Positions 1-43,537 of a DNA stretch of 64,000 nt are shown here, in pieces. Every line of letters begins with the position of its first letter. The stretch's first letter is position 1. Location of the stretch: positions 330,212,001 through 330,276,000 of the forward strand of contig OZ024743.1 of assembly GCA_964016885.1 (NCBI GenBank). Reading direction: 5' to 3'. The position numbers and the translations under genes are program-made. The stretch is from Eledone cirrhosa (Eukaryota). The notes under the pieces were generated by a model. That model was not told where the DNA came from. It ran no database searches and worked only from the letters and a program-made list of their open reading frames with translations.

Positions 1-1504
1 GGAGGAATTAGAAGATGCCAAAAAAATGGTAAAGAAAGATGGGTACAGGGTCACCCCCCCCCCCCACACACATACACCTAATAAAATGGAGCATCGGCGC
101 CTATGCATCGTGTCTTATCGAACAATTAATGTAAAATCGCTCCGAGTGGAACGGGCATCCGAGTCCCAAATCCAAAAAGCTTTGGGACATGTGTGGGCAA
201 AAAAACCCCACATCAGACGTGGGCAGAAGTATGGAACCGTGGATGTGTTCTTTGAAACACCAGAGGAGGCTAGAGAACACTCCATGGCCCCATTAAGAAG
301 TGACGACTTCACACTCGTCCCAAGCTATTGTGGTCAGAGATTCGTAAAGATCAGGGTGACCCACGTTCCACCGGCCATCGAAATTCCCTGGCTAATAGCT
401 GCCGTCCTCGCCGGTATCGAAGCCAACACTAAGATAATAGCAATAGCGAAAGAAAAGCAGGAGAACTGGTCCGGATCTGGGATGGAGCTCCTGATCCAAG
501 CGGACCAAAAAAGCATTGAGGAGATCCCAGAGGTAATAGCCTCACTGACGGCAGCCACCTCACCGTAATTGTCGGAGGCAGAAGGCCTAGGTGTGTCGTT
601 TGTGGTGAAGGAACCCACCTAAGGCTCTCTGCCCTCAGGCTAAAAGGTTGAGGCCACCTCTCCTACCCACCCCAGTGACTCAACCATCAACACCACCAGC
701 AGCAGAGATGGCAGCAACAACTGTAGCAGCAACAACAGAAGCAACTATAACAGCAACAACCCCAGCAACAGTAGCAAAACCAACACCACCACCACCCAAC
801 GCTTCAGAACTAGCACCAGCGCCTACAACCATCCACCACGCCACAACCAAAACTAACGCCTGTGGAGGATTTTCCACTCCCCGGCCTATCACAACTGGAG
901 ACAGATTGTGACGACGAGGAGTGGGAAACGGTATCAGGAAAAAAAAAGAAACCAAAAAAGAAAAAATTCTCTTCCTTCCCCCTCCAAAAACAAAATACAG
1001 AGGGAAACAAATAAATTAACAAACAAAAAAGTTAGGACAGATATGACACCATCCACACCAGCATCAACAACCCCATCACCCCAAACACCAACACCATCAC
1101 CATCATTAACCCCAACACCACCATCACCTACACCACAAAAGTCACCAAAATGCGAAACAGAAACAGACCCACAACAAACGCAAACAAAACAAAACAACCA
1201 AAACGATACACACTACACAGCATTAAATTTGAACAACAAGCAATTATTACACTACATCCAACACAACACCAGCATCACAGAAAAAGACTACACAACGACC
1301 CAAAAATTGACACCACCTCCACACATACAAATCACTCGCATCACACAGAAAACGTACATGACACTAAAACAAAAATTCCCCAAAGACATCGGAGACTTCC
1401 GACAAGCACTCTCCAGGAGGATTTATAAGGACATCCTTCCTGAGGAGGCCACAAGCAGTGAAAAGGATGGAAAAACCGTCCTTCCTCTACGAGAAGTAAG
1501 GTAA
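1..1504 (+). pseudogene. Tx1 ORF1 (RRM-like region, CCHC knuckle, Pro/Thr-rich linker, basic NLS-like patch), frameshifted
   Basis: ORFs 26-568, 648-911 and 908-1504 are collinear with ORF1 of copy 3; knuckle C-V-V-C-G-E-G-T-H-L-R-L-S/C near 592-632. Confidence 0.85.
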
Positions 1505-1538
1505 GTGGTATTTCCCATCTTTTCCACTCCTTTTCAAC

Positions 1539-6201: not shown

Positions 6202-9200
6202 GATTTCATTTATTGGCCACAAGGGCCGACATATAGGGGACAATACAAAAGACTGGGACAGTGGGGTTTTACAGAACAATATGAATAACAATAACAAAGT
6301 AACAAGAAAAATACAAGAAAAATTCCCCAATAGGGGGGGTGTCTACCCAGGGTTCGCTCAGGTACCCCACCAATCCTGAACGACCCGACGCTTCGAGAGC
6401 ACCATGGAAGGGCACCCCTTTATTCCTCAAATTTACCTACCTACAGCCGCATGACCAGAGTAGGCCCACTCACACGGGCCATTCTCGCCACATTCACCCA
6501 CCTTTCAGCAAATGTACTGGGGGGCAGCACTTCTCTCTCCACCCTTACCTTCCTTTCCAAGTGAAACGTGAAAAAGTTGATGAGGGATTGGCCGAAGAGA
6601 AAAGTGTCTGTCTTCAGTCCTTTCAACCTCGTCCACCATACAACCTCTTTCGCTACTGCCACCAGACAGAGGAAAATTGCCTGCCCTTCCTGGCCAAAAG
6701 AAGGTGGCGTGTCGATCTTCACTATGGACTCGGCCGATAGCGGATCCGTTCTACACGCGACAACAGCCGTTCGACATAACTCCACAAGTCAGTAATGCAC
6801 GGAGTAATGCACGGACACTGGACGAGTGCGTGCAGAACGGTTTCGTCGCTCTGCGCGCATTTCGAGCAGGTTCGTCTGACAGCACTTCCGTGCCTGTAGA
6901 GTTTATCTCGAACCGGCAGTGCCCCCCGGTAGGACTGGCAAGCGAGGGATTTTTGGAAATTATCCATCGTCCCCGGCTCGAAAGTCCTCCGGTACAGACT
7001 GGTTAGTTCGACTTCGTTGACTCCCAAAGCCTCTCCGAGTGCGTCGTCGCACTTCCCACCACTAATCCTCTATATAACTCGAGAGTGGAAGTTCCACTGA
7101 CCTTATTGCCCGCCTGGTAGAGGGTAGTGAGAGCCTGGCAACATTCCAGATGTCAGTCACCCAGTATCGGACTCTTCTTGACCCAGGACTGCAGCTCAGT
7201 CAAAGAAACGAGCTGCGGAAAGGCCCGTCTGACAAACGGCAACCACACCTGTTCACCGTTTAGGCAGAATATCTGGAGATGCAACAGCCTCAGCGCGTGT
7301 CTGCGCATCATTAGCCGCGGCATGCCCAGCCCTCCAGGTAGAGGGTGCTGGCAGCAGATGGACCGCCTCACCAACGGAACCTGACCCCTCCACAAGAATT
7401 TGAAGAGGAGCCGCTCCAAGATGGCGAGCCGCGAACGGGGGAAAGGGACGACAGTCAGACGGTAGTAGATGACGGACGCGATGTACGCGTTCGCCACCTC
7501 CGCCCGACCTTTCAGTGATAGCTTCTCGCAGCTCATGTCTGGGTGAGACTGGCTACCCTGCAAGTCACCTCGTCCCAATTCTTATCTACATGGAGGTCTG
7601 GCCCAAACCAAACCCCGAGCAACTTTACCGGTCCGTCCGTCCAGCGCCTAACGACGCTGTTGGACGGCATGAACTTGCCTCTCCAGGTGCCGAGTTGCAA
7701 GCCCACCGACTTTTCCGGGTTAAATTTTGTTCCCGTCAACCTTTCATATTCCTCCATTATGTTGCCGACCACCTCGATTTCTGAGGTGTCCGACACCATC
7801 ACGGTGATGTCGTCCGCATAAGCCGACACAGATTTTCCGCGTCCTGGCTCGAGCGGGATGCCCTGCAACAGCTGCAGCTGCCGCAGTAAAGGCTCGAGAG
7901 TCAATACGTACAGAATGGAGGAGAGAGGGCACCCTTGACGGACCGATCGGGAGACCTGAAACGGTTCCGAGAGGTGGCCATTAATTTTGACCACCGAGCA
8001 GGTGCTTGTGCATTGCAGCGATCCAGCTTCTGAAGACGGGGCCGAAGCCAGCCGCCTTGAGGACAGCCTCCAGGTACCGATGGTCAATTTAGATCAATCG
8101 AAAGCATTCGATAGGGTCTATCGAATGCTTTCGATTGATCTAAATTGATCAGAGCCCCACTGAAGCCAAGTTTACACCCTACCCTCTCTATGATGTATCG
8201 CATCAGGTGGTGGTTGTCGTGTATGGACCTGGTTGGGATTGCGCAAGTTTGCGCCTCCCCAACCAAATCCCCGACGACAAGCGCCAACCTTTTCTCTAAC
8301 ACCCTGGCCAAAATCTTAAACTCTATGTTGAGAAGATTTATGGGCCTGAAATTGTCTAATGTGTCCCTTTTGTTCTCCTCTTTCCTTATCAGCGTCACTA
8401 CGCCCCGGCTCACAGAACTGGGAATGCTGCCGTTCTGCTGCCAGTTGCAGTAGAGCGCTTCGAGGAGATTGGAGAACAAGTCTGGCATATTTACGTAAAG
8501 CTCGTGGGGCAGACCATCCAAAGCGGGTGACTTGTGCCTCATACAGCCGACAAGGGCATCCTGAATCTTGGTTGAAGTAATTGGCCTTTCGCAGCGCCCA
8601 GCGTCGGCCGTCGAGAGTTGCGGCAAGCCATCTAGGTAGGGACTGAAGTCCGCCACCGTCTCTGACCCGCCACTTCCCCCGCTCAACCTAGCAAAATGTT
8701 GACGAAAGGCCTCACACATCCGCTTGGAATCGCTCAGCTCGTGTACATCTCGGTCCGTCAAAGACCGAATCGTGGTTTTATTACCAAGCTGCGCCTCTGC
8801 CACGCGAGCCCATCGAACAGCTTTGGTTCCCTCGTTTCTCAGAGCACGCACCTTAGCTCTGACAATGCAACCTTCGTGTTTCGCATTGAAGAAATGGTCT
8901 AATGCCATTCTCGCCGCTTGCACGTTAGTTGCAATGCCACTACAAATAGCCTCGTCTAACATATCTACCAACCTCCCCTCCTTTCTATTTTTCTCTAACG
9001 CTTCTTCTTTGCTAAACTCTATCGACATTATCCTAATCTCTCTTTTGAGAGCCCCCCCCCCACCATCTATTGTTGACGACTCCCCCTGTCAACCTTTTCT
9101 TAACTAAATTGTTGACCTGGTCCCTGTAAGCCTTACGTGCCGGAAATTACATGTTCAGCTTCCAGAAACCTGGTCCTAACCTACGCGTCTTATCTAGGTC

Positions 9201-10796
9201 GACCATACAGATCACAAACTTGTGATCTGAATAGGCGACCGTTTTAAAACGTGGACAGCTTACACTATTTCTGTGTATTTTCCTAATGAATATCCTGTCT
9301 ATATACGATCTAGATGACACTATACGGTTAGTCCAGGTCCACACTGGCGCATTAGGGAAATCTAGTCGGTACCTGTCAGACAGTTGGAACTGGCTGATCA
9401 GGTTCTTGAGGCTTTTGCACCTCCCGCTCCTATCGCATACTCCCACACAGTCCCAGCGTGCGTCTAAGATGCCGTTCCAGTCCCCCGCTAACAGTAAAGG
9501 GCGAGACGTACCCAAAAAGGCTTCCAGACGTCTAAAGAAGTCCAGCCGTCCTGCCACAGTAGACGGCCACCAGTCTAAAGGCAGCACCATCGTTATTGTT
9601 CACGTCCAGGACCACCAACTTCCGGTTCGGGTCCCGGAAGATCGACCTTACCTCGAGATCCAGGCCTTTCCTAAACAGCACTGCCACTCCGCCTCCCATT
9701 CCCGGCCGACTAACAGATGAACAGATGCAAAGATCTGATAGTCGTCGAAAATGGGGGCTAGTGCGCGCGTGTCGGAAATCCTGGTCTCGCTGACGGAAAT
9801 TACATCCATTTCTAGAGACCTGAGGTCGTTGAGCAGGTGACCCTGCTTCCAGGACGATCCCAGGCCTCAAACATTTAAATTTTCTACTCTTAATACGGCC
9901 ATGTTGGCACGTTAAAAGAGAGAGAGGAAAGGTTTACTTACCTTCCGGGCTCTTGTGAAGGTCGGGTGGTTCGACCTCCATAGTTGGTGGGGTTTCTTTT
10001 GGGAACCCCTTTAAAAGTCTTGAAGTGGGTTTTACGTTCGGGGTTCCCATGTCCCGAAGAAAGCTGTCTCGTATCTCTTTGTATAAATCGAGCGACATTC
10101 GAACCAGAAACAAATCTTCCGGCACGCGAAATGTGCTCGATTTAAAAATGTCCCCCTCTTTTTGTATATTTTCACTTCGTGCTACGAGGGCCATCAGTTA
10201 CTTATTGGCCCTCCTGACGAGCATGAAGTTTTGTATGTTTTGTTGGTGTGATTTTATTTGTTTACGTGGCAGTGGTGGTGATGGTTTTGAAGGTGTTGTT
10301 TCGGTTGTGTCTGTATGTTGTGAGTGCGGTGTCTGTGGTTTCAGATGTTTGTGTGTGTATTTGTTCTTGCATCTGTTTAGGTTGTTTGCCTTTGGGGGAT
10401 TCTGGTGATGGTGATGGTGGTGTTGATGTTGGTGTTATTGGGGAGATGTTTGCGTGGGTGGTGTCTTCATTTTTTATAGTGGGTGATTTTGTGCTTTGTT
10501 GAGTTTTTTTTTTTCTTTCTTTCCTTTATTGTTTTTGGGGAGATTTTGGTTTTCCCTCATCTTCACTACTGGTAGATGAGGGGTCTGTGCCTGGAAGTGT
10601 GTCTGTGTGTTTAATTTTTTATTGGTATGTGTATTTGGGGGGGGGGGGGAATTTGACAAATTTCCTCGTTTCCTCCCTGGGTGGTCAATGTTGGTGGTGG
10701 TTTTTCTATTGGTGTTGTTGCTGGTGGTTTTGCCGGTGCTGGTGTTGGTTGTGGTCCTCGCCCCGGCGTCTGCAGCAGTGGAGCCCTTCGACCCCT
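6202..10796 (-). mobile_element. Tx1 copy 2, 5'-truncated, inserted antisense into ORF1 of copy 3
   Basis: Minus-strand fragments of APE (9147-9902), RT (7533-9028, YADD) and CCHC (6441-7027); ORF1 C-terminus 9934-10194; AATAAA near 6210; 18-bp TSD at 6184-6201 and 10797-10814. Confidence 0.92.
6441..9902 (-). pseudogene. Tx1 ORF2 of copy 2, many frameshifts
   Basis: Motifs GDWN, SYIDR, SDH, KSPALDG, QGCPLS, YADD and CSKC...HALVQC. Confidence 0.92.
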
Positions 10797-12203
10797 ACTG
10801 AAACTAAAAATAATAATAACAAAAATAACAATAACAACAACAGCAACAACAGCGACAATGAGAATAACAACAACAACAACATCAACACCAGCGCAAAACC
10901 AAATGTGTCGTTTGCTAAAGCGGCAAACAAAACTGAAACAGTTGAGGTAAGCCAGGAAGAATTGAATGAAGCCAAGCGAATGGTAAAAAAATATGGTTAC
11001 AGGGTCAGCCTCACCCCCAAGCTAATACCATGGAGCATCGGCGCCTATGCACCGTGTCATATCGGACGGACGATAAATATTAAAACGCGCCGAGTGGAAC
11101 GGGCATCCGAGTCCCAGATACAAAAAGCTTTGGGACATGTGTGGGCTCAAAAAACCCACATCAGACGTGGGCAAAAATATGGAACCCTGAACGTGTTCTT
11201 TGGTACCCACAGGAAGCCAGAGAGCACTCCATGGCCCCATTAAAAAGTGACGAGTTCACATTCGTCCCAAGCTATCATGGTCAGAGGCTGGTAAGGATCA
11301 GGGTGGCCCAGGTTCCGCCGGCCATTGACATTTTCTGGCTAATGGCTGCCGTCCTCGCCGACATCGAGGTCGACACTAAAGTAATTGAGGTGATAAAAGT
11401 AAAGCAGGAGAACTGGTCCGAATCTGGAATGGAGCTCCTGATCCAAGCGGGCCAAAAAAATATACAGGAAATTCCAGAGGTGATAGACCTCAATGACGGC
11501 AACCACCTCACCGTAATCATTGAGGGTAGAAGGCCTAGGTGTGTCGCTTGGGGTGAAGGAAACCACCTAAAGGCTTTCTGCCCTCAGGTTAAAAAGTTGA
11601 GGCCACCTTTCCTACCCACCAAATGACTCAACCATCAAAACCAGCAGCAGAAATGGCAGGAACAACTGTAGCAGCAACAACAAAAGCAACTGTAGCAGCA
11701 ACAACCCCAGCAACTGTAGCAGCAACAACCCCAGCAACTGTAGCAGCAACAGTAGCAAAACCAACACCACCACCATCCACCGCGACAGAATTAGTACCAG
11801 CACCTCCACCATCCACCACGCCACAACCAAATCCAACGCCAGTGGAGGATTTTCCACTCCACGGCCTATCGCAACTGGAGACAGATTGTGACGACGAGGA
11901 GTGGGAAACTGTATCTGGAAAAAAGAAAAAGAAAAGAAACCAAATAAGAAAAAGTCCTCTTCCTCGCCCTCCAAAAACAAAATGCAGGGCGAAACAAACA
12001 AACTAACAAAAAAGTTAAGACAGTTATGTCACCACCCACACAAGCATCACCAGCCCCATCACCACAAACACCAACACCATCACCATCATTAACCCCAACA
12101 CCACCATCACTAACACCACAAAAGTCACCAACAAGCGAAACAGAAACAAACGCAAACAAAACAAAGCAACCAAAACGATACACACTACACAGCATTAAAT
12201 TTG

Positions 12204-12383
12204 GATTGGCAGTATCAGTAGAAAGTCGGACGCCATGCTTTGCAGCATAGAGTTACGCCCCTTTATTGTGTGAGTTCAAATCCCGCCGAGGTTCACTTTG
12301 CCTTTCATCCTTACGGGGTCGATAAAATAAAGTACCAGTTATGTACTGGAGTAATTGCTGGCCTTGTGCCAAAAGTAGAAACA
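12204..12383 (+). mobile_element. tRNA-derived SINE inserted in ORF1 of copy 3
   Basis: A-box TGGCAGTATCAG, B-box GAGTTCAAATCC; TSD ATTAAATTTG at 12194-12203 and 12384-12393; empty site visible in copy 1 (~1222-1232). Confidence 0.93.
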
Positions 12384-12672
12384 ATTAAATTTGAACAACA
12401 ACCAATTATTACACTTCATCCGACACAACACCACAACAATTCAAACCACCCCCACACATACAAATCACTCGCATTATATAGAAAACGTACAGGACACTAA
12501 AATTAAAATTCCCCCAAGGACATCGGAGACTTCCGACAAACACTCTCCAGGAGGATTTATAAAGACGTCCTTCCGGAGGGGTTACAAACAGTGAGAAAGA
12601 CGGGAAAACCATCCTTCCTCCAGAAGAGGTGAGGTAAGTAGTCTTTCCCATCTTTTTCCACTCCTTTTCAAC

Positions 12673-15600
12673 ATGACCTTACTCAGAATAGGCAGCATAA
12701 ATGCGCGTGGCCTGGGGTCGTCATGGATCCAGGGCCACCTGCTCAACGACCTCAGGTCACTAAACATAGATGTGGTGGCCATCAGCGAGACAAGAATCTC
12801 CGAAGCACGAGCCTTCGCACCGATCTTCGGCGGCTACGATGTATACGCATCTCCCAGCCGTCAGGATCGGAGGTAGGAGTTGCTGTGCTTTTTCGGAGAG
12901 ACTTGGATTTCGCCATACTGGACGGACCGGCAGCGAAAGCAATGCTTTCAGGCTAGTAGCCGTCTACGCCCCAACAGAGGCAGGACGGCCAGATTTCTTC
13001 AGACGTCTAGAGACCTTTCTTGGAACGTCCCGCTTTGTAGTGTTAGTGGGCGACTGGAACGGTATCTTAGATGCACGCTGGGATTATGTGGGGCTAGTAG
13101 ACAGGGCAGGAGGGTGTACAAGCCTCAACAATCTGCTCAGACGTTTTGAACTGTCTGACAGGTATAGACTGGATTATCCGAATGTGCCAATGTGGACATG
13201 GGCAAACCGCATCGAGTCATCCAGATCGTATTTAGATAGGGTATTCTGTAGGGAAAGTGATAAGGCTAGTGTAGGTTGTTCACAATTTAAAGTAGACGAC
13301 TACACGGACCACAAATTTGTGATCTGAGAAGTTGACTTAGATAGACTCCATAGGAAAGGGCCCGGCTACTGGAAACTGAACGCGTCGTTTCCGGCGCGCA
13401 AAGCTTACAGAGACCGGATTAACGAATTAGTTAAGCGTGCGTTGACGAGTGCGATCGTCAACAACAGGTGGTGGTTTACCCTGAAAAGGGCTATTAGAGT
13501 AGAAACGATAAGGTTTAGCAAAGGAGTAGTGATAGAGGGAAATAGAGTAGAGGGAGAGTTAGTTAGAAAGCTAGAAGAGGCGTTTATGACAGGCATCGCA
13601 ACCGACGTGCTTGCGGCGAGATTGGCACTCGACCAATTCTTCAACGCAAAGCATGAAGGCTGGATTGTCAGACACGAGGGAACGAAAGCCGTTCAATGGC
13701 CCAGGTGGTGGAGGCCCGATGTAGCAACAAATCCACAATTCGGTCTTTGCCTGATAAAAACGGGCGCATGTTGCTCGAACCCGAGCAGATGTGTGCGGCT
13801 TTTCAACAGCACTTTATTCCATTGTTCGGGAGCGGCGGCGGGCCGGTGCGCAGTATGGACTGCACGAGGAGTAAATCGCCAGGTTTGGATGGTCTACCCT
13901 ACGAGCTTTATGCGGATATGCCAGACTTGTCCGGCGACTTCTTGGCAGATGTCTACTGCAGCTGGCAGCAGAACGGGAGCATTCCCAGTTTTGTGAGCCG
14001 TAGAGCGGGGGACGTTATAGACAACTTCAGGTCCATAACTCTGCTAAACGGAGAGTTTAAGATTTTGGCCAAGGTGTTAGCAAAGAGATTGGCGCTTGTC
14101 GTCGGTGATCTGGTGGGAGAGGTGCAGGCGTGCGCCATCCCGGACAGATCCATCCACGACAACCTCCATCTCATGCGATACATCATAGAGAGGGTGGTTA
14201 AGGAACCTGGCACGGGTGGGGCCCTGATCAACTTGGATCAATCTAAAGCATTTGATAGGGTCGACCATCGGTACCTGGCTGCGGTCCTCGAGGCGGCCGG
14301 CTTCGGGCCCGTTTTTAGGGGCTGGATCGCTGCGATGCACAGCGACATCTGCTCGATTGTGAGGGTGAATGGTCACCTGTCGCAGCCTTTCAGCATCATG
14401 CGCTCGGTCCGCCAGGGTTGCCCCCTCTCGTCCCTCTTCTACGTACTGGTCCTAGAGCCTTTACTACACAAATTGGAGACGATGAGGGGGTCCCACGCGA
14501 ACTGGAATGCGGGAGATCCGTGTCAGCTTACGCTGACGACGTCACCGTGGTGGTGTCGAGCACCAAACACGTCCAGATGCTCGGCACTACTCTCAAGGAA
14601 TACGAAGCGGTGACAGAAGCAAAGATAAACCAGGAAACGTCGGTGGGATTACAGCTCGGCACCTGGAGAGGGAAGTCCATGCCCTCCGTCAGCGTCGTGG
14701 ACGCTGGACAGAAGGACCGGTTAAATTGTTCGGGGTCTGGTTTGGTCCGGACCTCCAGATGGAGAAAAACTGGAGCGAGGTGACATGCATGGTGGCCTCT
14801 CTCTCCAAGAAATGGGCCGAGAGGCGGCTTTCTCTGAAAGGTCGGGGAGGTGGCGAATGCGTATAGCGTCCGTCATCTGCTACCGCCTGACCGTCGTACA
14901 TTTCCACCGCTCAACTCTGACCAAAATGGAGTGCCTTCTGTTCCGCTTTTTGTGGAAGGAACGTGCTGCCATGGTCAGATGATCCATTTTCTGTCAATAC
15001 CCGTTGCGTGGAGGACTAGGCATGCCGTGGCTGATGATGCGTAAACATGCGCTGAGGCTGCGACATCTCTGGTGCTTCCTTGACGGCGAACAGGTGTGGT
15101 CGCCGTTTGCCAGACGCGCTTTTCCCCAGCTTGACGGAGCTGCAGTCGTGGATCAGGAAAAGACCGAGGGATAGCGCTTGGAAGCTGGAATGTCTCCAAG
15201 CGCTCACTGCCCTCTACCGGCTGGACACTAGTATCGGTGGAACATCCACCTTGGCGTTCTATAGAGGGCTAGTGGAGGGAAAGAACGACGACTTTCTTTG
15301 GGAGACCCTGGGCGTCGAAGACGATCAGCTGTTCGCTCTCTTCAAGAGAACTTTCAGACCGGGGACTATGGACAACTTCCAGAAATCCCTGGCCTGGCAG
15401 TGCTACCGGGGAGCGTTGCCGGTTCGGGATAAGATCTACAGGCACGGAGGTGCTGTCACCCGAGCCTATCCGAGATGCGCGCAGAGCGACGAAACCATCC
15501 TGCACGTACTCGTTCAATGCCAGAGCATTGTTGACTTGTGGAGCTATGTCGAACAGTTGCTGTCGTGTGTAGGATTGATCCGGTTATCGACTGAGTTCAT

Positions 15601-15883
15601 TGTGCAGATGGTCTCGCCGTCTTCCTTCGAGGAGGAAGGGCAGGCGGTTTTCATCTGCCTGGTTGCCATGGCGAAAGAGATTGTGTGGTGGACAAGATTG
15701 AAAGGGTTAAAGACAGACACTTTCCTCTTCGGCGAATCCCTAATTAACTTTTTCAAATTTCACTTGAAGAGGAAAATCAGGGTGGAGAGGCAAGTGCTGC
15801 CTTCTAGCAAGTTTGTTGAAAGGTGGGTGAATGTAGCGAGAATGGTCCGAGTGACCGGGACCGCTCTGAATATACGTCTGTAG
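12673..15883 (+). pseudogene. Tx1 ORF2 of copy 3, with frameshifts and internal deletions
   Basis: ORFs starting at 12673, 12770, 13442, 13696, 14418 and 15080 carry APE, RT (YADD) and C-terminal motifs. Confidence 0.93.
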
Positions 15884-16075
15884 TTTGAGAGATGGGAAAA
15901 TTGACAGAGGGCGCTTGCCCTGGTGGTCAGGGTGGCCGTGGTCTTTTGTTTGGTTTTCGCCACGTGTAACCCTCGGAGGATTCCCCCCTATTGGGGAATT
16001 TTTCATTGTTTCAATTTTCATTTTTATTGTTTATATATATATATATGTTTCTGTCTTTTTTTCTTATATAAATAA

Positions 16076-16251
16076 TTGTTTCTACGTTTGGCACAAGGCC
16101 AGAAATAACCCAGAGCATTACTGGTACTTTATTTTATCGACCCCGTAAGGATGAAAGGCAAAGTTAACCTCGGCGTGATTTGAACTCAGAATGGCAAGGG
16201 CCGTAACTCTATACGTCAAAGCATAGCGTCCGACCCTCTACCGATACTGCC
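16076..16251 (-). mobile_element. tRNA-derived SINE in the 3' UTR of copy 3
   Basis: Reverse complement of the family consensus. Confidence 0.88.
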
Positions 16252-22349: not shown

Positions 22350-23992
22350 TGCAGTTATTAGATGCAAAATATTTGGAATGTTTTACATATTTTTACTGTT
22401 CCATTAATGGATTGTACTTGTTTCCTAACTAGTTGTGTTCTTTCTGTTCCTGTGAAGCTCAGCTTCTCAAGATTTGTATTGAGGCAGTTACTAACATATT
22501 CCAGTGCCCCAATAATCACAGGCATAAATCTGAAGGTGTAATCAGGGTAGAGTATCTGCATATTTCTCATCAGTTCTGCATAAATATTCTCCTTTTCACT
22601 AAACTTTGATATTATATTGGCATCTGCTGGGCAGCTAATTTCCACTACTGTGCATGCTTTCTTCTCCCTGTCCCATATCATAATATCTGGTCTGTTATGC
22701 CTGCATTTTATTTGGGTTTTTACTGGAACATTCCACCAGTACTCTTTCATATTATGTACATGGATGTCTTCCACATTGCTGTAGATTTTAATCTGTTTAT
22801 TATCGGGGCTATCTTTTTTACGAACTGCATTGTACAGTGTTTTGGCCACTACATCATGCCTCATAGGTAGATAGTACCGCCATGACATCTTTGGACAGCT
22901 GCTGATGACATGGGTGATATCCTCGATGTTAGTTCTGCAGAGTCTGCACTTGTTATCACATCTAGCTGTTTTTCCTGCATCCCTATCTCTTTTGTGAATC
23001 AGGTATTTCGTGTTAATCTCCTGTTCTTGGATTGCAAAAGCGTATCCTTCAAAGTGGGAGCCAATATATCGGTTGTTGGTCCAAGATAGACTACTTTCCT
23101 TATCTATATTACTCTCACTCTGGAGCTTCCTGGCAACATATCCATGCATGATTTTTTGCTGATAAGCATGCATTTTTTCATCCATGGATTCACTGCGAAA
23201 CTGCTGAGCGACTGAGGGTGTGAGTTTTGATTACCACACAGGGAATATCTCTCGAGGAGTTCCTTCCCAACTCTCATGATCTTATCTGTTTCATGTAGAT
23301 AGACTTGCTCGAGAAACGGGCTCCTACGCTTCGAGGTTCGTAGATGTTGTCGGAGAGATATGATGCGACATTCAAATGTTGTCTGGACTGATGTTAGGCC
23401 TCTCCCTCCCTGCTTACGTTTCAAGTAAAGGCGGTCTATGTCACTGTTGATGTGGAAGTTTCCGGTGTTGTTTAGTATTTTTCGAGTTCCAACATCAACA
23501 GCTCGGATTTCGTCTATCGTCCAATTGAGTATTCCAAACGTTGGTGTTAGGACAGGCACAGCAAACACATTGTGAGCCATTGTTTTGTTTTGTGCAGAGA
23601 GTTCCGATGACCAGATCTTTCTTAATCGGGTGTAGTATTCCTTGGTTACGCGTTCTTTATTACAGATGCCATTATAGGATGTGTTCTCATCTATCCCCAG
23701 GTATCTGTAGCAGTCCTCATCAGATATCGGTGAAACAGTTAGGCCATTGATGACAATGTTGCTAGATTGGGTTGTTGTTTTTCCCCGCTTTACAGTCATG
23801 TATGAGCATTTATCTTGGCCAAACTCCATTCCTATATCCTTTGAGAACGTTGTAACCAGGTCAATATTTTTCTTCATCCCATCCCTGTTCTTGGCATAGA
23901 GTTTCAGATTGTCCACAAAGAAATTATGGGTTAGGTTCGTATTTCTGTCCTCCTGTGAGCCAATGATGTATCCCTCACATTTCTTGAGCAGA
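22350..23992 (-). mobile_element. R4/Dong-clade-like non-LTR retrotransposon (RT plus restriction-like endonuclease), 5'-truncated
   Basis: THNFFVDNLKLY (xDDLKLY type), Y.YLG, CRLC...EDITHVISSC, RHD, RPD...VVEISCP...K..Y; flanked by (TACA)-type repeats. Confidence 0.88.
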
Positions 23993-24356
23993 TTTATGTA
24001 TGTATTTATATATGTATGTATGTATTTATGTATGTACGTATGTATGTATGTATTTATGTATGTACGTATGTATGTATGTGTTTATGTATGTATGTATTTA
24101 TGTATATATCGATAATTGAAACATCGAAATTATTCGTTTGGTAGATTTTATTGCATTAGCACCATGACAACCTTATTACCTAAGATGCTGCCTAATGAAC
24201 TTGCGTTGGAGATTACTTGATCACAGCATCACGTGATCATAAACGCCACGAAAATATGTATCATGGCTGATTATGAATAAAGGAATTATGAATATCTACA
24301 ACTTACCTTCGCAATTATCAATATATTTATTTATATACAACCTCGCTATATATATA

Positions 24357-29638: not shown

Positions 29639-30094
29639 CTATATTTATATACATATACATGTATATACATGTATATATATTTGTATATATACAAATATAT
29701 GTATATATATATATAGTTCTGATCTAGCTGTCGAAACGGCTGGAGCTCAGCCGTCGGGGTCCTGGCTATTTTCCTATTATCCACTTTACTACCGAAGTAT
29801 TGAGTACTCTGGTGCATTATGGTCCACCTGGTACCATACCACACCCTCTTTGTTTTTATGTATACATATCTATCTATCTATCTATCTATCTTGATAGAGT
29901 AAGACACGCTTCGCATCGGCTCCGCTATTCCATCGGGATTTACCCTTACTATTGTAAGTACCGGATAAATTTTTTAGTGCAACACATTTGGAACACTAAC
30001 CCCTGTTATTTAGGGAAACATTTTTGCATTTACCCCCTTTTTTAGGGGGTAAAATAAATATCTATTTTTGCCGAAAAATTTCTTTCTTGGCAGC

Positions 30095-31931
30095 ATGGCG
30101 GAAAAGATGGCAGACATGTCTGCCATTAGCTCTGCCACGCCCCCCAAGTCTGAAGAACAAAAAATAATTACAACAAAATTAGACATTGAAACAAACAAAC
30201 AAAATGAAAAAACAAATGTTAAGGAAAATGAGCAAACAGAAAACAAACAAACAGAAAATAATACAAATAACGACAGGGCAACTTTCGCCCAGAAAACAAA
30301 ACAATCCATTACATACACACCAATTGACCTAACTGCCGCCAGAGAAAAACTGGCCGAAGCAAAGAAACACATTGTTTTGGGGGAGAACGGAATGTTTTCC
30401 ATTAACTCCCCCCCAGAATTCAAGAAAGCCAGAGCAGAAAACACAGTTCTCTACAGAACTATACTGAACCAGACAAGAAAGCCAGCACAGCCCAGCCAAA
30501 TGGAAATAGAGTTAGTCCTAAAAGACTATATGAAGAATATTCTCTTCATACGAAAGGACCGACTCTATGGCAGCATTTCGGTCCTAACAAGAGACAAAGA
30601 AACGGCGGAGAAGCTTTCCCTAAGCCCACTCTCGTCGACAACATATAGCTTCTATCCCTCCTACATGGGTAGAAGAACACAGAGAGTAAAAGTAAAAACA
30701 ATGCTGCCCACAATGGACTTCTGGTGGGCTATTGCTGGCTTCATTGATATGGGCGAAGACACAATGCTGTCAATGGGGAAGGCAACTGGAGATGCGTTCC
30801 TGGGAATGGGGCTCGACATACTAGTCCAAATGAGGCCCGAAAGAATAGCACAAATCCCGGATCGCATCTGGCTAGATGACCTTACCCCAATAGACATAAT
30901 TGTAGAGGGGAGAAGACCAGCATGCTATTTATGCATGGAAAGGGGACACGTTAAGGCTAACTGCCCGAAACGTATCCCCCAAAAAGGACTATTGCCCACA
31001 CCCACCACAAACAGTACACCAACACCACCCACCTCCAAAAATACACTAATACCACGCACAGCAATCAAAATACAGACACCACCAACCACAAACACAACAC
31101 AAACATCACCACCACCAGCACCAAACACAAGCACAACACAAAAATCACCACCACCAACCACAACACAAACATCACCACCACCATCACCAACCACAAGCAC
31201 GACACAAACATTACCACCACCACCACAAAACCCATTCCAAACAAATAATAAAAAAAACAGTAACAAATCTACCCCTCCCGCAAAAAAACAACAACCACAC
31301 AACACATCCCTTCCACCTAGCGCTGAAGAGTTTCCCCCAACTTCTGAAGAAGAAGGAGGAGAAGCCTTCAGACAAGTTAAAAGAAAAAAAAGAAAACACA
31401 CACCCAGCACACCACAAATAACCCACACACAAACACCAACTCCAATCAAAAACACCCCACCCTCAACAAACAAAAATAAATCTGCGCCTCCCCTCTCCGA
31501 AACATTGACAGCATCACAAAAAAAGACGTTGCAATACACATATATAAATAAAGAAAACAAAAAACTGGTTAAATTAATAAACAATAACCCTATGGTGCAG
31601 ACCGAAGGGCCAAACTTTATCTCAACAGAGAACTTCACCCATTTAAAAATGATAAAGGTCCCTCTGGACCTTTATCGTTCCTTAAAAGAACAATTTAGAC
31701 GGGACGTGAGCCCCCCCCCCCTGTTTAAAACCGTTGAATCGCGTCCTCTTGAAAGATTTCCCCATAACCGCCCCTCTCCCTGACACAATTTCAAATACCC
31801 CAACCCCACCACACACGTGTACCCCCACACCACCACAAAACATCCCTCCACCCAACACACCTGATGCCATGGAAATTACGCAACCCGGAGAGGTAAGTGC
31901 TTTTCTTTCTTCACTTTCAACACCAAAATAG
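30095..31931 (+). CDS. Tx1 ORF1p (CX2CX4HX4C knuckle, Pro/Thr-rich region, KRKKRKH); probable 1-nt frameshift in the C run at ~31710
   Basis: CYLCMERGHVKANC; the C-terminus in frame 31734-31931 (NRVLLK...MEI.QP) aligns with ORF1 of copy 5. Confidence 0.85.
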
Positions 31932-31936
31932 ATCAA

Positions 31937-34900
31937 TTGAGAGTTGGCTGTTTGAACGCGCGTGGCCTGGGCTCAGCTTGGAAGCAAGCAAAGCTTCTAA
32001 GTGACCTCAGGTCACAAAGTATAGATGTGATGGTTGTTTGCGAGAGTCGGATCAGCAGCGTGAGACAGCTGGCGCCCGCCTTCGATGACTTTGAGATGCA
32101 CGCATCTCTCTGTCAACCCGGAGGCGGGGGGGGGGGGTTGCCGTACTGCTGGATAAACGTCTGACTCTCGACGTACAGATTGTTCACTCGGACCCGGGGG
32201 GTCGATTACTGGTGCTGGACGTCGGAGGCGGTGAAGGCGGGGCTTTCAGACTGGTCGGTCTTTATGCTCCCTTCGGGGCGGAAAGAGCCGACTTCTTCCA
32301 GCGTCTGGAGACTTTTCTAGGAACGTCGCGTTCCCTGCTTTTAGTGGGGGACTGGAATGGAATCCTAGATGCGCGTTGGGACTATGCAGGGGCATGTCCC
32401 GATAGAGGGGGGTGTAGCAGCCTCAAGGGGTTACTCGATCGATTCGACCTGGTCGATAGATTTCGACTAGATTGTCCAACTGCGCCAACCTGGACCTGGG
32501 CAAACCGCAGTGGACAATCTAGATCGTACCTAGATAGGTTTTTGGTTAGGAGTAAGGATAGGGACGTATTTAGTTGTCCAGAACTGATCATGGTTGGCTA
32601 TTCAGATCACAAATTAGTGACCTGCGTGGTCAACCTTGATAGAACGCATAGACAGGGTCCCGGTTACTGGAAGATGAACTTGTCCTTACCGACAAAGAAA
32701 GATTACAGAAACCGGATTAGTAGCTTAGTTAAGATGCGGTTGACGGGAGCGATCGTCAACAGTAGGTGGTGGATATCTCTAAAGAGAGAGATTAGAGTAA
32801 GTTCGATAGGTTACAGTAAGGAACTAGCGGCGAATAGAAATCGGAGGGAAAGGGAGTTAACAGATAAACTAGAAGAGGCGATTAGGAGCGGAGACGTAGC
32901 CAGAGTGTTAGCGACGAGAACGGCATTGAGCCAGTTCTTTGACGCGAAGCACGAAGGCTGCGTTGTCCGAAGTAAAATACGTGCTTTAGGAAACGAGGGG
33001 ACCAAAGCTGTTAGCTGGGCCCGCGTGACAGAAGCCAAGAGTGGGATTAAATCCACCATTCGGTCTTTGCGAGACCAGGATGGACGGGTGATCCTTGAAC
33101 CTGAGCGAATGTGCGAGACCTTTCAAAGGCACTTTGCTCGACTGTTCGGAGGTGGCGGGGGGCCGGACGGGGATGTGGACTTCGGTCCATACCTCGACGG
33201 TCTACCGCGTCTTTCGAGCGGCGAAGCGGAGTGCTGCGAAAGGCCAATCACAGCCACTGAAATCGGGGAAGCGCTCAGCCAATGCAGCAGACGCAAATCC
33301 CCGGGTCTCGATGGTCTACCATACGAACTTTATTTAGCTATGCCGGTCTTGTTCTCCGAACTCCTCGAGGCTGTCTATTGCAACTGGCAACAGAACGGGA
33401 GAATTCCCTGTTCTGTGACCAAGGGCGTGGTCACGCTAGTGAGGAAGGACGAGAGCAAGGGGGACGACTTAAGTAACTTTAGGCCCATAACTCTGCTGAA
33501 TGCAGAGTTACAGATTTTGGCCAAGGTGTTGGCGAAGAGGTTGGCGCTTGTGGTGGGTGGTTTGGTGGGAGACGCGCAGACATGCGCTATCCCGTCCAGG
33601 TCCATTCACGACAACCTCCACCTCATGCGATACATCATAGAGAGGGTTGGCTACGAACCCGGCTTTGGTGGGGCCCTGATCAACTTGGATCAATCTAAGG
33701 CGTTCGATAGGGTCGACCATGGTTACCTGGATGCGGTGCTAGCGGCGGCGGGCTTCGGACCCGTTTTCAGGGGCTGGATTTCTGCCACGCACAGTGGCAA
33801 CATCTACTCTAGGATTAAAGTAAACGGCTACCTCTCGGAGCCGTTTCAAATCACCCGATCCATCAGACAGGGGTGCCCCCTCTCCTCCCTTCTGTACGTA
33901 TTGACTCTCGAGCCACTGCTGCGGAAGTTGGAGTTGCTGCGGGGCATACCCCTGGAACCGGGATTGCACAAAGCGGTCTCGGCCTATGCCGACGACGTAA
34001 CAGTAATGGTGGCGGACGCCTCGGAAATCGGGGCGATCGCCACCCTACTGGAGGAATACGAAAGGCTGACGGGGGCTAAGCTGAACCAGGACAAGTCAGT
34101 CGGTTTGCAACTCGGAACGTGGAGGGGCAAACCGATGCCGTTAGACGGTGTCGTCGGGCGGTGGACGGAGGGCCCGGTGAAGCTGCTCGGGGTCTGGTTC
34201 GGACCGGACCTCCAGGTGGAGAAGAATTGGGGCGAGGTGACGAGCAGGGTGTTTGCGCTGACCCAGAAGTGGGCCAAGTGCAAACTATCACTGAAAGGTG
34301 GGGCGGAGGTGACGAACGCTTACATAGCGTCCGTCATCTACTACCGCCTGACCGTCGTGCCTTGCCCCAAGGAAAAGCTCACCATCATGGAACGCATGCT
34401 CTTCCAGTTCCTCTGGAAGAAGCGGCCTCCCATGGTGAGGAGATCCATCTGCTGCCAGCACCCTTCGAAAGGAGGGCTGGGTATGCCGTGGCTGTTGATG
34501 CGTAGGCACGCATTGAGGCTACGGCATCTACAGGTATTCCTCAACGGTCAGCCGGTGTGGGCCCCGTTTGTGAGGCGAGCCTTCCCACAGCTCGTCTCGC
34601 TCACCGAACTGCAATCCTGGGTGAAGCAAAGACCGAGAAAACTGGGCAACTGGCACACCGAGTGTGCCCAGGCGCTCACGGCTATCTGGCAAGCGGACCC
34701 GACTGTCAGTGGAGAATCCACCTCGACATTCTATAGAGGGTTGGTGGCTAGCAGGGGCGACGACACCCTTGGAGAGTCGCTAGGCATGGAGGAGGACGAA
34801 CTGGCCAGCCTGTTCGGTAGAACTTTCGGCCCGGGACCCATGGACAACTTCCAGAGGTCCCTAGCCTGGCAGTGTTACCGGGGGGCTCTGCCCGTTCGAG

Positions 34901-35367
34901 AAAAGCTCTACAGACACGGGCGCCCGGGCAGGGATCCCGCGAAAAAGATCTGTCCCAGATGCGTGCGCGACGAGGAAACCGTTGCGCATGCACTGGTACA
35001 CTGCCCGGGCGTTGCCGATCTGTGGGGCTACGTCGAACGACTGCTGTCGCGTGTGGCGCCGATTCGATTAACCGCCGAGTCTGTGGTGAACATCAAGCCA
35101 CCTCCTCCCTTCAGAAATGAAGCAGAGGCGGTCTTTCTGTGCGTAATAGCCATGATGAAAGAGGTTGTGTGGTGGACGCGCCTGAAAGGTCTGAGGTCGG
35201 GTGACTTTCTCTCCGGCCATCACCTGGTTTACTTCTTCCGATACCACTTCGGAAGAAGAATCAGGATGGAGAGAGAAGTGCTTGGTCCCAGACAGTTTTA
35301 TGAAAGGTGGGTGAAAGAAGCGAGAATGGCCCGTGTAAATGGGCCTTCTCTCTACATTGTTCTGTAG
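31937..35367 (+). CDS. Tx1 ORF2p (APE, RT, CCHC); single frameshift in the G run at ~32126-32137; canonical ATG missing
   Basis: Motifs CLNARGL, GDWN, SYLDR, SDH, QGCPLS, YADD and CPRC...HALVHC. Confidence 0.93.
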
Positions 35368-35597
35368 GTGAAGAAGTGAAGAGGAAAGGGGGAGCGCCTC
35401 CTCTCTGGGCTTCCCCCGCGAAAAGAGTTGCACACTTTTCGGGGGTATGTGCAATCCCCAACACGCCCCCTCCCTTTTGAGGACTTTTTATTGTTATATT
35501 ATTATTGTTATTCCTTTTTTCTTTACTCGATTTATGTAAACTCCCCACTGTGTAAATGTCCCCTTCTTTTGTGCCCTCGTGGCAAATAAATAGAAAT

Positions 35598-35679
<82 letters not shown>
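35598..35679. repeat. (TATC)n microsatellite joining Tx1 copies 4 and 5
   Basis: About 20 TATC units. Confidence 0.95.
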
Positions 35680-35890: not shown

Positions 35891-37677
35891 ATGGCCGAAG
35901 CTTCTTCACCAAAATTCGAAGGAGGAAAGGGGAAGATGAACTTACAGCTTCCCCCTGCCACTGTCACAGTAGCAGAGGTCAAGAAGATAGGTCAGCCAGA
36001 GGAAGAATTCTCTCCACCTGTTAACCGACAACTTGACGTTGCCATGGCAACAACCCAAAGAACCAGCAGCAACAGCAACAACAACAACAATGCGACGGAC
36101 GAAAACAACACCAATAACAATAACAATAACAACAACAAGACCAATAACGGTGACAACAACAACAATGATAACAACAACACCACCAACGACAACAACAACA
36201 CAAACAAACAAAATTTCTCCTTCGCCGAGACGACAAGGAAAACCCTCGACTATCTGCCAGTAGATATAACAAAAGCGAAGGAGCTACTGGCGGATGCGAA
36301 AAAATATATAGTGTACGGGGAAAATGGTTCATTCACATCCATTCCCCCCCGGAACTAAAAAGCCAGAGACTCCTAAACACGGTCATGTTTAGGACAATCT
36401 CGAACAAAAGTAAAAAACCAGCTCAACCATCACAGAGCGAGATAGAGCTGGTTTTAAAAGACGTCATGAAGGACATCACCTTCATTCAGAAGGATAGACT
36501 CTACGGGAGTCTATCCATTCTCGTGAAGGACAGGGACACAGCAGTGAAACTGTCCATCAAACCAATCACATCCACCGCATACACCTTCTACCCTACGTAC
36601 ATGGGTAGAAGAACACAAAAAATAAAAATCCACACCATCCTGCCGATTATGGACATATGGTGGGTTTTGACAGGTTTTCTGGACCTGGAGGATGACATGC
36701 TGGTGTCCATGGGAAAGGCATCGGGTGACGCGTTCAGTGGAACGAGCCTCGAACTTGTAGTTCAAATGAGGCCCGAAAGGATCGCCCAGATCCCTGAACG
36801 CGTCATACTGGATGATCTAACCTTCATCAACATTACCGTTGAGGGTAGACGGCCCTCGTGTTACCTCTGCGGAACCAGAGGTCACCTGAGGGCTGTCTGT
36901 CCCCAACTTAATAAGAAAACCCCAATCCTGCCTACACCACCAACAACTGCACAACCAACACAATTACCACAACTACCACTACAAAAACAACCACCACAGC
37001 TCAAACCAAAACAAAACAATGTCCAACCCATCCCCTCCACTCAAAAAACAAAAACAATTTCCAAAACACCCGTACCGCAAACACAACCCGAAAATATACC
37101 CCTCCCCTCCAACGCGGAAGATGACCCTAGTTCGTCGTCAGACGAGGAGGAGCACTTCCACACAATCAAAAGAAAAAAAAGAAAACACACCTCAGACACA
37201 CAAATGAAAAAAACCCCTCCCCAAAACATAACACTGACACCAACACAAAAGAGCTCACAACAGCAAACAAAAAACACCACACAAAAACAAAAACATGCAT
37301 ACACATACATAAATACAAGAAACAAAAAACTGTTAAACATTGTGTACAACAACAATCTAATAAAAACACAAGGGCCTAACTTCACCCAGGCAGGGGATTT
37401 CCCCCACCTCAAAATGATTAAGGCCCCACAGGACACCTATAAAACTTTAAAAAACAATTTTAAAGAGGACGTGGGTCCCCCCTGCGTCGGGCCCATTAAC
37501 CGCGTCCTCCTAAAAAACTATCCCACCCCCTCCCCAAACACCCTCACAACTCCAAGCTCCCCAACCACACAACACACTGATGCCCCCACACTTCCACAAA
37601 CCACCACCCCACCCAACAACCCATCCCCCACCCTAATGGAAATTGTGCAGCCCGATACCCGGGACGCAGAGAGGTAA
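35891..37677 (+). pseudogene. Tx1 ORF1 of copy 5 (one frameshift near 36350)
   Basis: Asn-rich N-terminus, CYLCGTRGHLRAVC knuckle; homologous to ORF1 of copy 4. Confidence 0.88.
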
Positions 37678-37701
37678 GTGCCTTTTCTCTTCACCACCAA
37701 C

Positions 37702-40127
37702 ATGGCTATGCTAAGAGTAGGCTGTTTAAATGCGCGTGGCCTGGGCTCAACTTGGAAGCAAGCAATGCTTCTAAATGACCTCAGGTCACAACGTATAGAT
37801 GTGATGGTTATTTGCGAGGCCCGGATCAGCAACGTGCGACAGCTGGCCCCCACCTTTGATGACTTTGAGATGCACGCATCTCTCTGTCAGCCCGGAGGTG
37901 GGGGTGGAGTTGTCATTCTGCTGCAAAAACATCTGGGTCTCGCAACACAGATGGTACATTTGGACCCGGAGGGTCGACTAGTGGTTCTGGACCTTGGCAG
38001 TGGTAAAGGCGGAGCGTTTAGGTTGGTAGCCGCCTACGGCCCTTTCGGGTCAATGCGGCCGGACTTCTTCCATCGTCTGGAGACTTTTCTAGGGACGTCC
38101 CGCTCCTTGCTATTAGTGGGGGACTGGAATGGTATCCTAGATGCACGCTGGGACTACGTAGGGGCCTGCCCCGATAGAGAGGGGTGTAATAGCCTCAAAG
38201 GGTTAATCGGTCGATTTGACCTGGCCGATAGATATCGACTAGATTTTCCGACTGCGCCAACCTGGACTTGGGCAAATCGTAGCGGATCATCTAGGTCGTA
38301 CCTAGATAGGTTCTTAGTTAGAATTAAGGATAAGGACTTTTTAAGTTGTCCAAAAATGCGCATGGTTGGCTATTCAGACCACAAATTAGTGACCTGCATG
38401 GTCAACCTTGACAGAACTCATAGACAGGGCCCCGGTTACTGGAAGCTCAACTTGTCCTTGCCGGCAAGTAGAGCCTACAGGAATCGGATTAGTACGTTAG
38501 TTAAGGAACGGTTGACTGGAGCGATCGTCAACAGCAGGTGGTGGGTATCTCTAAAGAGAGAGATTAGAGTAGTCTCGATAGAATTTAGTAAGGTTCTAGC
38601 TGCGGATAGGAATAGGAAGGAAAGGGAGCTAATAGATAGAGTAGAAGAGGCAATTAGAAGCGGCGACGTGGCCAGAGTGCTAGCGTCGAGAACGGCTTTG
38701 AGCCAGTTTTTCGACGCGAAGCACGAAGGCTGCGTTGTCCGAAGTAAAATACGTGCTCTAGGGAACGAGGGGACCAAAGCTGTTAGCTGGGCCCGCGTGA
38801 CAGAGGCCAACAGTGGAACTAAATCCACCATCCGGTCTTTGCGAGACCTGGATGGACGGGCGATTCTTGAGCCTAAGCAGATGTGTGAGGCCTTTCAAAG
38901 GCACTTTGCGTCGTCGGACGCTGGACGGAGGGCCCGGTGAAGTTGCTCGGGGTCTGGTTCGGACCGGACCTCCAGGTGGAGCAAAACTGGGCGGAGGTTA
39001 CGAACAGGGTGTTTGCACTGACCCAAAAGTGGGCCAGTTGCAAACTATCCCTGAAAGGCCGGGCGGAGGTGGCGAACACCTACATAGCGTCCGTCATCTA
39101 CTACCGCCTGACCGTAGTGCCCTGCCCAAGGGAAACCCTCACCAAGATGGAGCGCGCGCTCTTCCAATTCCTTTGGAAGAGGCGGGCTCCTATGGTGAGG
39201 AGATCCATCTGCTGTCAACACCCTTCGAAAGGAGGGCTGGGGATGCCGTGGCTAATGATGCGTAAACACGCATTAAGGCTACGGCACCTCTACGTATTCC
39301 TCACCGGACAACCGGTGTGGGCCTCGTTTGTGAGACGAACCTTTCCCAGACTCGTCTCACTCACCGAGCTGCAATCCTGGGTCAAGCAAAGACCGAGAAA
39401 ACTGGGCGCCTGGCACACTGAGTGTGCCCAGGCGCTCACCGCCCTCTGGCAGGCGGATCCGGTTATCAGTGGAGACTCCACCGCAACATTCTATAGAGGG
39501 CTGGTACGCAGCAGGTGCGACGACGCCCTCGGAGAAGCCCTAGACATGGAGGAGGACGAACTGGCCAGCCTGTTCGGTAGGACATTCAGCCCGGGACCTA
39601 TGGACAACTTCCAGAAGTCCCTGGCCTGGCAGTGCTACCGAGGGGCTTTACCCGTTCGAGAAAGGCTCTACAGACACGGGCGCCCGGGTAGGGACCCCGC
39701 CAAAAAGATCTGTCCCAGATGCGTGTGCGACGAGGAAACCGTTGCACACGCATTAGTACACTGCTCGGGCGTAGCCGATCTGTGGGGCTATGTCGAACAA
39801 CTGCTGTCAAGGGTGGGACCGATCCGGTTGACCACCGAGTCTATTGTAATGATCAAGCCGCCTCCCCCCTTCAAAGATGAAGCAGAGGCGGTGTTTCTGT
39901 GCGTAATAGCCATGGCGAAAGAGGTTGTATGGTGGACGCGTCTGAAAGGACTGAGGTCGGGCACCTTTCTCTCTGGCCAACAACTGGTCCGTTTCTTCCG
40001 ATATCATTTCGGAAGAAGGATCAGGATGGAGAGAGAGGTGCTGCACCCCAGCCGTTTCTATGAAAGATGGGTGAAAGTGGCGAGAATGGCCCGTGTGAAT
40101 GGGCCTTCACTCTACATCAGACTATAG
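37702..40127 (+). pseudogene. Tx1 ORF2 of copy 5 lacking ~1 kb that covers the RT core
   Basis: FQRHFA is followed directly by VVGRWTEGPVKLLG (frame-shifted); no YADD. Confidence 0.92.
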
Positions 40128-42957: not shown

Positions 42958-43141
42958 GGGCGGTGGATTGGCAGTATCGGTAGAGGGTCGGACGCCATGC
43001 TTTGCAGCATAGTTACGCCCCTTTACGATCTGAGTTCAAATCCCGCCGAGGTTGACTTTGCTTTCATCCTTACGGGGTCGATAATATAAAGTACCAGTAA
43101 TGCACTGGATAATTGCTGGCCTTGTGCCTAAAGTAGAAACA
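42958..43141 (+). mobile_element. tRNA-derived SINE, full-length
   Basis: A-box TGGCAGTATCGG, B-box GAGTTCAAATCC; TSD ATTATTTGAA at 42948-57 and 43142-51. Confidence 0.93.
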
Positions 43142-43355
43142 ATTATTTGAATGTTTTCTTCAGTCCTTTTCTTCTCTCTCTTATTACACAGATGATGACT
43201 GGGAGGAACTGTGTTAGTGAAATAAGTTTAGGTGTCAGAGTCCTATTTACGAAGTGTAAATACGGATGAGTAATGTACGTTCTTAAAGAGAAGAATTATT
43301 AAAAAAAGAAAAATATAAAGCATCTTACTTTTATTGACGAGGTAGAGGAAATAAT

Positions 43356-43537
43356 TGTTTCTACTTTTGGCACAAGGCCAGTAAAGTACCCAGTATATTA
43401 CTGGTACTTTATTTTATCGACCCCATAAGGATGAAAGGCAAAGTTAACCTCGGCGGGATTTGAACTCAGAATGGCAAGAGCCGTAACTCTATGTGTCAAA
43501 GCATGGCGTCCGACCCTACCGATACTGCCAATCCACT
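43356..43537 (-). mobile_element. tRNA-derived SINE
   Basis: Reverse complement of the family; TSD GAGGAAATAAT at 43345-55 and 43538-48. Confidence 0.93.

Follow-up and report, generated by a model that had tools for sequence, protein, structure and literature searches.

Long interspersed elements (LINEs) of the Tx1 clade that target microsatellites, namely Kibi, Koshi and crocodilian Tx1, possess two open reading frames (ORFs), an APE endonuclease, a reverse transcriptase (RT), a zinc region and a CCHC motif in ORF1; they insert into microsatellites and occur in tandem runs (PMC4494074; for this and the other papers cited, the comparison extends to parts of the text). The same is found in the LINE of Eledone cirrhosa dealt with here, which is represented by five related copies in a stretch of 64,000 nucleotides (nt) of contig OZ024743.1 (positions 330,212,001 to 330,276,000; the whole stretch is referred to as the window). 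In copy 4, a 5' splice-site motif (donor) stands at the end of ORF1 and an acceptor-like TAG stop codon at the end of ORF2, and an earlier note had proposed that the whole of ORF2 is a spliceosomal intron. In the consulted parts of PMC4494074, neither splice sites round ORF2 nor start-to-end pairing is mentioned, and the insertion targets of the elements described there differ.

The Eledone element is an L1/Tx1-type LINE. ORF2 of copy 4 carries an N-terminal APE endonuclease, an RT and a C-terminal Cys region; its best solved relative is human L1 ORF2p (E 1e-48, against 1e-22 for R2), and the closest named protein is from Argonauta hians (63%). A (TATC)n repeat flanks both sides in five of five full-length copies of copy 4's family, in line with the target-sequence preference of the Tx1 clade, while the microsatellite of copy 1's family is (ATT)n. 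The label Tx1 is based on anatomy and target preference. ORF1 contains CX2CX4HX4C at 30923-30964, which falls into a look-alike cluster with zf-CCHC at 0.92, without a Pfam match; a protein search with ORF1 gave no matches, nor did any of the viral contigs searched match. Copy 4's family, with 379 exact genomic matches to a 22-nt ORF1-end motif, is young as judged from its sequences, the best 40 copies being 98-100% identical and often arranged in tandem about 5.7 kb apart.

Splicing of this type has been described for Arabidopsis EVD, in which a conserved U1-type donor is joined to a weaker acceptor to give shGAG; here, too, the donor is conserved and of U1 type, and the candidate acceptor is the weaker site. 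The intron is retained in the replicating RNA of EVD and the short RNA serves the structural protein, which is likewise proposed here (PMC5580714). EVD differs in being a long terminal repeat (LTR) element with one polyprotein, whereas the present element has non-LTR anatomy and is not a member of Ty1/Copia. The EVD intron has its centre in the protease region and is tied to early termination; in the present element the whole pol gene would be removed and the 3' end would be normal. EVD splicing was shown by RNA (PMC5580714), whereas splicing is here proposed from sequence.

Within LINEs, human L1 transcripts contain splice sites too, and most of the RNA remains unspliced there; those splices lie in the 5' untranslated region (UTR) or join 5' UTR and ORF1 and were judged detrimental, whereas here the sites flank ORF2. 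The resulting spliced integrated retrotransposed elements (SpIREs) leave retrocopies (116 of 6,609) and can move in cis, whereas none were found here (PMC5860796). SART1 and LINE-1, which use termination-reinitiation, resemble the present element in their bicistronic RNA, in an overlapping stop and start (ATAG in copy 4's family), in tolerance of a non-AUG start and in RNA structure near the ORF2 start, which is predicted here; the structure described for them is local and does not reach to an ORF2 end 3.4 kb distant, nor is splicing described in the consulted parts (PMC5972666). A literature search of titles and abstract openings, with most subscription papers beyond its scope, gave no description of an ORF2-spanning intron in a LINE, and the terms 'splic' and 'intron' have no occurrence in the consulted part of PMC13282606.

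The donor at the ORF1 end

The comparisons below show that selection acts on the nucleotides of the donor, which is a peculiarity of this clade. The features concerned are as follows; a slash marks the putative exon end.

29891..35598, plus strand: copy 4, full-length L1/Tx1-type LINE (about 5.7 kb) between (TATC)n repeats; 5' junction common to four other copies; tail (TATC)20 at 35599-35679
30095..31931, plus strand: ORF1 of copy 4; CCHC knuckle at 30923-30964, low-complexity C-terminal half
31890..31898, plus strand: 5' splice-site motif GAG/GTAAGT of copy 4, GT at 31893, by sequence match and U1 scoring
31899..31920, plus strand: pyrimidine-rich spacer of copy 4; letters vary among lineages
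31921..31943, plus strand: predicted 5' arm of a start-to-end RNA pairing (zipper), spanning the ORF2 start
31928..35367, plus strand: ORF2 of copy 4; APE endonuclease, RT and zf-RVT (Pfam PF03372, PF00078, PF13966); start ATA
35344..35367, plus strand: candidate 3' splice site, consisting of a pyrimidine tract and the TAG stop; ranks first among the 109 YAG sites of L109, a sister copy
35348-35370, plus strand: predicted 3' arm of the zipper, overlapping the candidate 3' splice site
35368..35598, plus strand: 3' UTR of copy 4; AATAAA at 35585-35590
1498..1506, plus strand: donor of copy 1 (family with a TAA stop); ORF2 terminates with TAA at 4949, and 5108 is the last letter of the best acceptor-like CAG
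6441..9941, minus strand: copy 2, donor at 9941 to ORF2 TAG at 6441, as read from the sequence
12634..15883, plus strand: copy 3, from the donor to the TAG of ORF2; its pyrimidine tract is weak, nine YAG sites being better
37674..40127, plus strand: copy 5, donor to ORF2 TAG; about 1 kb missing inside ORF2

In the window, ORF1 of copy 4 has a poly-C frameshift at 31711-31721 and ORF2 a poly-G frameshift at 32126-32137; in the sister copy L109, the ORF2 frame is open over more than 1,100 codons. The five donors of the earlier note were recovered with the letters claimed (GT at 1501, 9941 on the minus strand, 12634, 31893 and 37674), as were the five ORF2 ends (TAA at 4949; TAG at 6441 on the minus strand, 15883, 35367 and 40127). 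The string AGGTAAGT has five plus-strand and three minus-strand matches in the window, five of these eight being the donor sites. The copies had been attributed to diverged subfamilies, and they are indeed 67-84% alike in blast segments; because they are related to this degree, they are not five independent observations.

In the genome of 3.0 Gb, a degenerate endonuclease (EN) motif has 13,871 matches (control, 261), and G/GTRRG is found 45-75 nt upstream of it in 12,251 of these 13,871 places, against 5 for the reversed pattern. Sixty stretches taken from the first 100 listed EN places gave, together with the window, 69 ORF1/ORF2 junctions, of which 64 have the donor; they form 20 clusters with an ORF2 divergence of 6-33%. 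When scored against the U1 5' end from the E. cirrhosa genome, the donors of 19 representatives form 7-8.5 of 9 pairs, and 16 of them have no better U1 match anywhere in the element (232-320 GT sites each); in L109, of copy 4's family, the donor is the best among 259. The U1 small nuclear RNA genes themselves lie in tandem arrays with a period of 2,674 nt (G000:C2:180973544-180995099 and C1128).

Seventeen lineages were then compared; the chimeric L128, L112, which has no donor, and L138, which nearly duplicates another row, were left aside. Donor positions -1, +1, +2, +5 and +6 are invariant in all 17, variation is confined to GTAAGT, GTAGGT and GTGAGT, and the letters vary freely from +7 onward; only 13 of 100 four-fold (silent) sites are invariant in the same comparison. 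The reading phase of the donor differs by lineage, being phase 2 (R-stop), phase 1 (GK- or GE-stop) or phase 0 (read-through). In a family with 42% identical ORF2 (L245-L282, from CAXXMW01), ORF1 ends with TAA, followed by G/GTAAGT and an ATG 13 nt on, in 16 of 16 loci shown. Distant L1/Tx1 loci have such a motif across the ORF1 stop in 1 of 36 (39 of 74 loci examined), and an ORF1-end donor is lacking in L283, a third family in the same metagenome-assembled genome (MAG), and in the more distant L284. Because the donor is kept in three phases and also behind the ORF1 stop of the relative, coding and stop context cannot explain it, and from its invariance, the three phases, the relative and its rarity in distant loci, selection in this clade is concluded. 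The donor half of the original proposal thus gains strong support as a selected U1-type splice site.

CAXXMW01 is catalogued in GTDB as an 'Arenicella' MAG, and its contigs carry tandem arrays of the eukaryote-type LINE; they are likely host DNA binned as a bacterium, and L284, in another MAG, looks likewise.

The surroundings of the donor differ in two respects from what had been described. AG/GTAAGT is present near the ORF1 end in all five copies, but in copy 4's family it does not form the ORF1 stop: in each of 30 close copies the longest ORF1 frame meets the donor in phase 0 (510-581 codons in five), and ORF1 reads 12 codons past the donor to TAG at 31929-31931, overlapping ATA at 31928-31930. 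The position of the ORF2 start shortly after the donor likewise stands, but this start is ATA and not ATG, the sequence being ...CAAAATAGATC in 30 of 30 close copies. The ATAG at 31928-31931 is a natural non-AUG stop/start overlap in a young LINE family of 379 copies. Most lineages keep CAACATG at the ORF2 start; an acceptor-like TTTTCAG 7 nt before the ORF2 ATG is restricted to two lineages (L110, L116, L137, L139 and L140). Copy 3 of the window (12634-15883) and L128 have 5' and 3' parts resembling different lineages, and these mosaics suggest recombination between families.

The ORF2 end and its pairing with the ORF2 start

Acceptor quality was ranked by a pyrimidine count of our own, not by a trained splice model, and without an AG-exclusion rule, which drops most stop sites through an AG 7 nt upstream. 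On this scale, the ORF2 TAG is without a better pyrimidine-YAG rival in 12 of 17 TAG lineages (94-126 sites each). The ORF2 stops of distant L1/Tx1 loci comprise 12 TAA, 11 TAG and 10 TGA. Joining donor and TAG in the phase of each lineage (clusters 11, 16 and 18 left out) gives a stop within three codons in 11 of 16, against 7.1 with shuffled phases (p 0.022, the lineages not being independent); these are all five phase-1 lineages, the phase-0 lineage and 5 of 10 phase-2 lineages. In four of the five phase-2 misses, the AG 7 nt before the ORF2 stop would give S-L-stop. The proposal that the ORF2 stop doubles as acceptor is thus consistent with copy 4's family and most lineages, but not with the TAA family. 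For copy 1, the AAG 7 nt downstream that had been put forward gives way to a better acceptor-like site, a U-rich CAG 158-169 nt into the 3' UTR in seven of seven copies; two sister TAG copies have CAC at this place, which is one event only.

The second feature of the ORF2 end is its predicted pairing with the ORF2 start. The mean predicted energy is -21.3 kcal/mol for own pairs and -17.4 for crossed pairs, and none of 20,000 permutations was as good, a result inflated by kinship; three of 20 have a weak zipper, and it is weak in the copy-3 group. In a fixed register (L100 left out besides L128, L112 and L138), 74% of cells pair against 70% in shuffles (2 of 5,000 reach 74%), and double changes number 10 against 5.1 expected (122 of 5,000 reach this). 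The slide control is biased, because the register was derived from one of the sequences. In seven of eight loci of the 42% relative, a scan of 3.7 kb puts the homologous end first among the possible partners; the same holds for L283, but not for L284. Since it spans the pyrimidine tract and the AG, the zipper makes it less certain that splicing is what preserves these letters; at the same time it offers a way to retain the intron. The donor half is stronger than the acceptor half, whose signal is probably explained in part by the predicted zipper.

In the L245-L282 family, the ORF2 stop lies in the loop of a hairpin (GGGTCC-TTAG-GGACCC). A second strong donor follows 14 nt after the stop, and pyrimidine-YAG sites come after it at distances of about 55 and 260 nt; L283 has a strong donor about 40 nt after its ORF2 stop, likewise with pyrimidine-YAG sites downstream. 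With this module, the 3' UTR may hold an intron, about 240 or 145 nt long, that genomic copies have kept.

A retained intron and the alternatives

The best reading, to which we give a probability of about 0.52, is that ORF2 is a mostly retained, regulated intron, the removal of which gives an ORF1-only mRNA. U1 would bind the donor, and some transcripts would be spliced from there to the ORF2 end, yielding a short message with a normal 3' end. The acceptor would be the AG of the ORF2 stop, or the AG 7 nt earlier, in most lineages, and the 3' UTR CAG in the TAA family. Lying over the pyrimidine tract and AG, the zipper would compete with the recognition of the 3' splice site and so determine which share of the RNA retains the intron; together with the modest acceptor, it would keep the remaining RNA unspliced for ORF2 reinitiation and genomic copying. 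As the junction would lie at or near the ORF1 stop, the short mRNA would avoid nonsense-mediated decay and yield an excess of ORF1 protein for the LINE particles. What the sequences display is the donor with its nucleotide conservation, the acceptor-like ORF2 stop of most lineages and the complementarity of ORF2 start and end; U1 binding, acceptor choice and splice ratio are inferred. The more far-reaching version, in which a whole RT gene in a retained spliceosomal intron is gated by a conserved 3.4-kb zipper that links splicing and ORF2 translation with the selection of RNA for copying, is put forward tentatively.

Several results weigh against the retained-intron reading. Genome-wide, 5,898 of 22,861 ORF2 ends (26%) are TAA and 16,963 TAG; of the first 100 TAA rows, 98 belong by eye to copy 1's family, which is successful and has a perfect donor. 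TAG is kept in 16 of 17 lineages, a retention equalled by 12 of 30 silent G sites. In L245-L282, TAG reads TCG in 5 of 50 matches (a TTCG loop with read-through). Five of 10 phase-2 lineages regain no stop at the TAG join, the acceptor-like letters double as the 3' arm of the zipper and code for a conserved C-terminus, and no clear branch point was seen by eye. The zipper is present in L283, which has no ORF1-end donor, and whole-RNA folding missed it in two of two copies. Retrocopies lacking precisely ORF2, named in the earlier note as a mark of splicing, were found in none of the four families searched: copy 4's family has none, compared with 379 matches to its ORF1-end motif, and the matches in three other families, numbering 0, 1 and 8 (denominators not measured), include no GT-AG join. 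Their lack is weak evidence, because an ORF2-less RNA cannot move in cis. Among the candidates rejected, L299 consists of 24 nt of an ORF1 end fused to a different repeat and is too short to be called a splice, L301 is an inversion, and L294-L297 are small or microhomology deletions. Four sequencing runs over 31600-35480 contain no 31892^35368 among the 15 of 96 joints shown, and contigs of run X4 cross donor (31767-32113) and stop (34999-35480) unspliced; these data count neither way, because X1-X3 look like DNA and none of the four is catalogued as RNA.

Retroviruses possess decoy donors, such as the negative regulator of splicing of Rous sarcoma virus and the major donor of human immunodeficiency virus type 1. 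In an analogous sense, the present donor may bind U1 and be rarely spliced, shielding the RNA from premature cleavage or holding it unspliced, while the zipper separately controls ORF2 translation or packaging. This would agree with a donor much better conserved than the acceptor, with the thriving TAA family, with the zipper of L283, with the U1 site that both relatives carry behind their ORF2 stop and with AATAAA or ATTAAA at most 600 nt before the donor in 14 of 19 representatives. In EVD, U1 blocks premature termination, and a single donor is both spliced and guards against early termination (PMC5580714). Yet the position of the upstream hexamers is not conserved, just 0-2 of them occur in ORF2, and the top acceptor-like rank of the ORF2 stop, the phase match and the CAG of the TAA family are left unexplained; we regard a U1 site without regular splicing as rather unlikely, though the most serious competitor.

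The remaining two explanations are far less probable. The AGs found 34-63 nt after the donor, many of them in frame, and the missing ATG of copy 4's family might speak for a short intron of 34-63 nt, consisting of donor, pyrimidine spacer and nearby AG, that fuses ORF1 to ORF2. By hand, no in-frame AG was found either for the family of copy 4, which is in phase 0, or for that of L117; many candidates are AAG or GAG, little space is left for a branch point, CAACATG is kept in most lineages, and in the 42% relative the ORF1 stop precedes the donor, with its ATG 13 nt on. Such a fusion is thus very improbable. Hardly more credit is given to the motif being an inherited by-product of codons or stop context with no role in RNA processing, even though the lineages share one ancestor and the phase-2 forms GTAAG, GTAGG and GTGAG equal G, each of the three stops, and G. 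Conservation in three phases and in non-coding sequence, five of five key donor positions against the few invariant silent sites, and the single match among distant loci have largely refuted it for the donor.

Neighbourhood of the copies and relevance

A dispersed repeat of about 190 nt, resembling a short interspersed element, is found at 5986-6180, 12202-12395, 16067-16251 and 42959-43536, several copies adjoining LINE tails. Pieces of another non-LTR RT, with weak RVT_1 and zf-RVT matches, lie at 22358-24081 on the minus strand, and 46267-63995 is occupied by a 50-bp satellite (about 355 copies, 90% alike). In the 200 kb before the window, the ORF2 C-terminus has no matches, nor has EN with one correctly framed query.

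New in the present analysis are the three reading phases, the ATA/ATAG overlap, the counts across the genome, a candidate acceptor for the TAA family and the second donor of the relatives. LINEs require ORF1 protein in large excess over ORF2 protein, and the known solution is inefficient reinitiation on one unspliced RNA. If real, the system would work like the shGAG splicing of Ty1/Copia, to which Drosophila copia with its comparable splicing also belongs, while the element itself is an L1/Tx1-type LINE; a spliced ORF1-only message would then be a second solution to the ORF1 excess, converging on Ty1/Copia, in a clade with over 13,000 5'-intact copies in the genome. The exact junctions are predicted for existing cephalopod RNA data. 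Even without a splice, host splicing could be captured by the about 12,000 strong donors scattered genome-wide, and the pairing of ORF2 start and end would be a testable control element.

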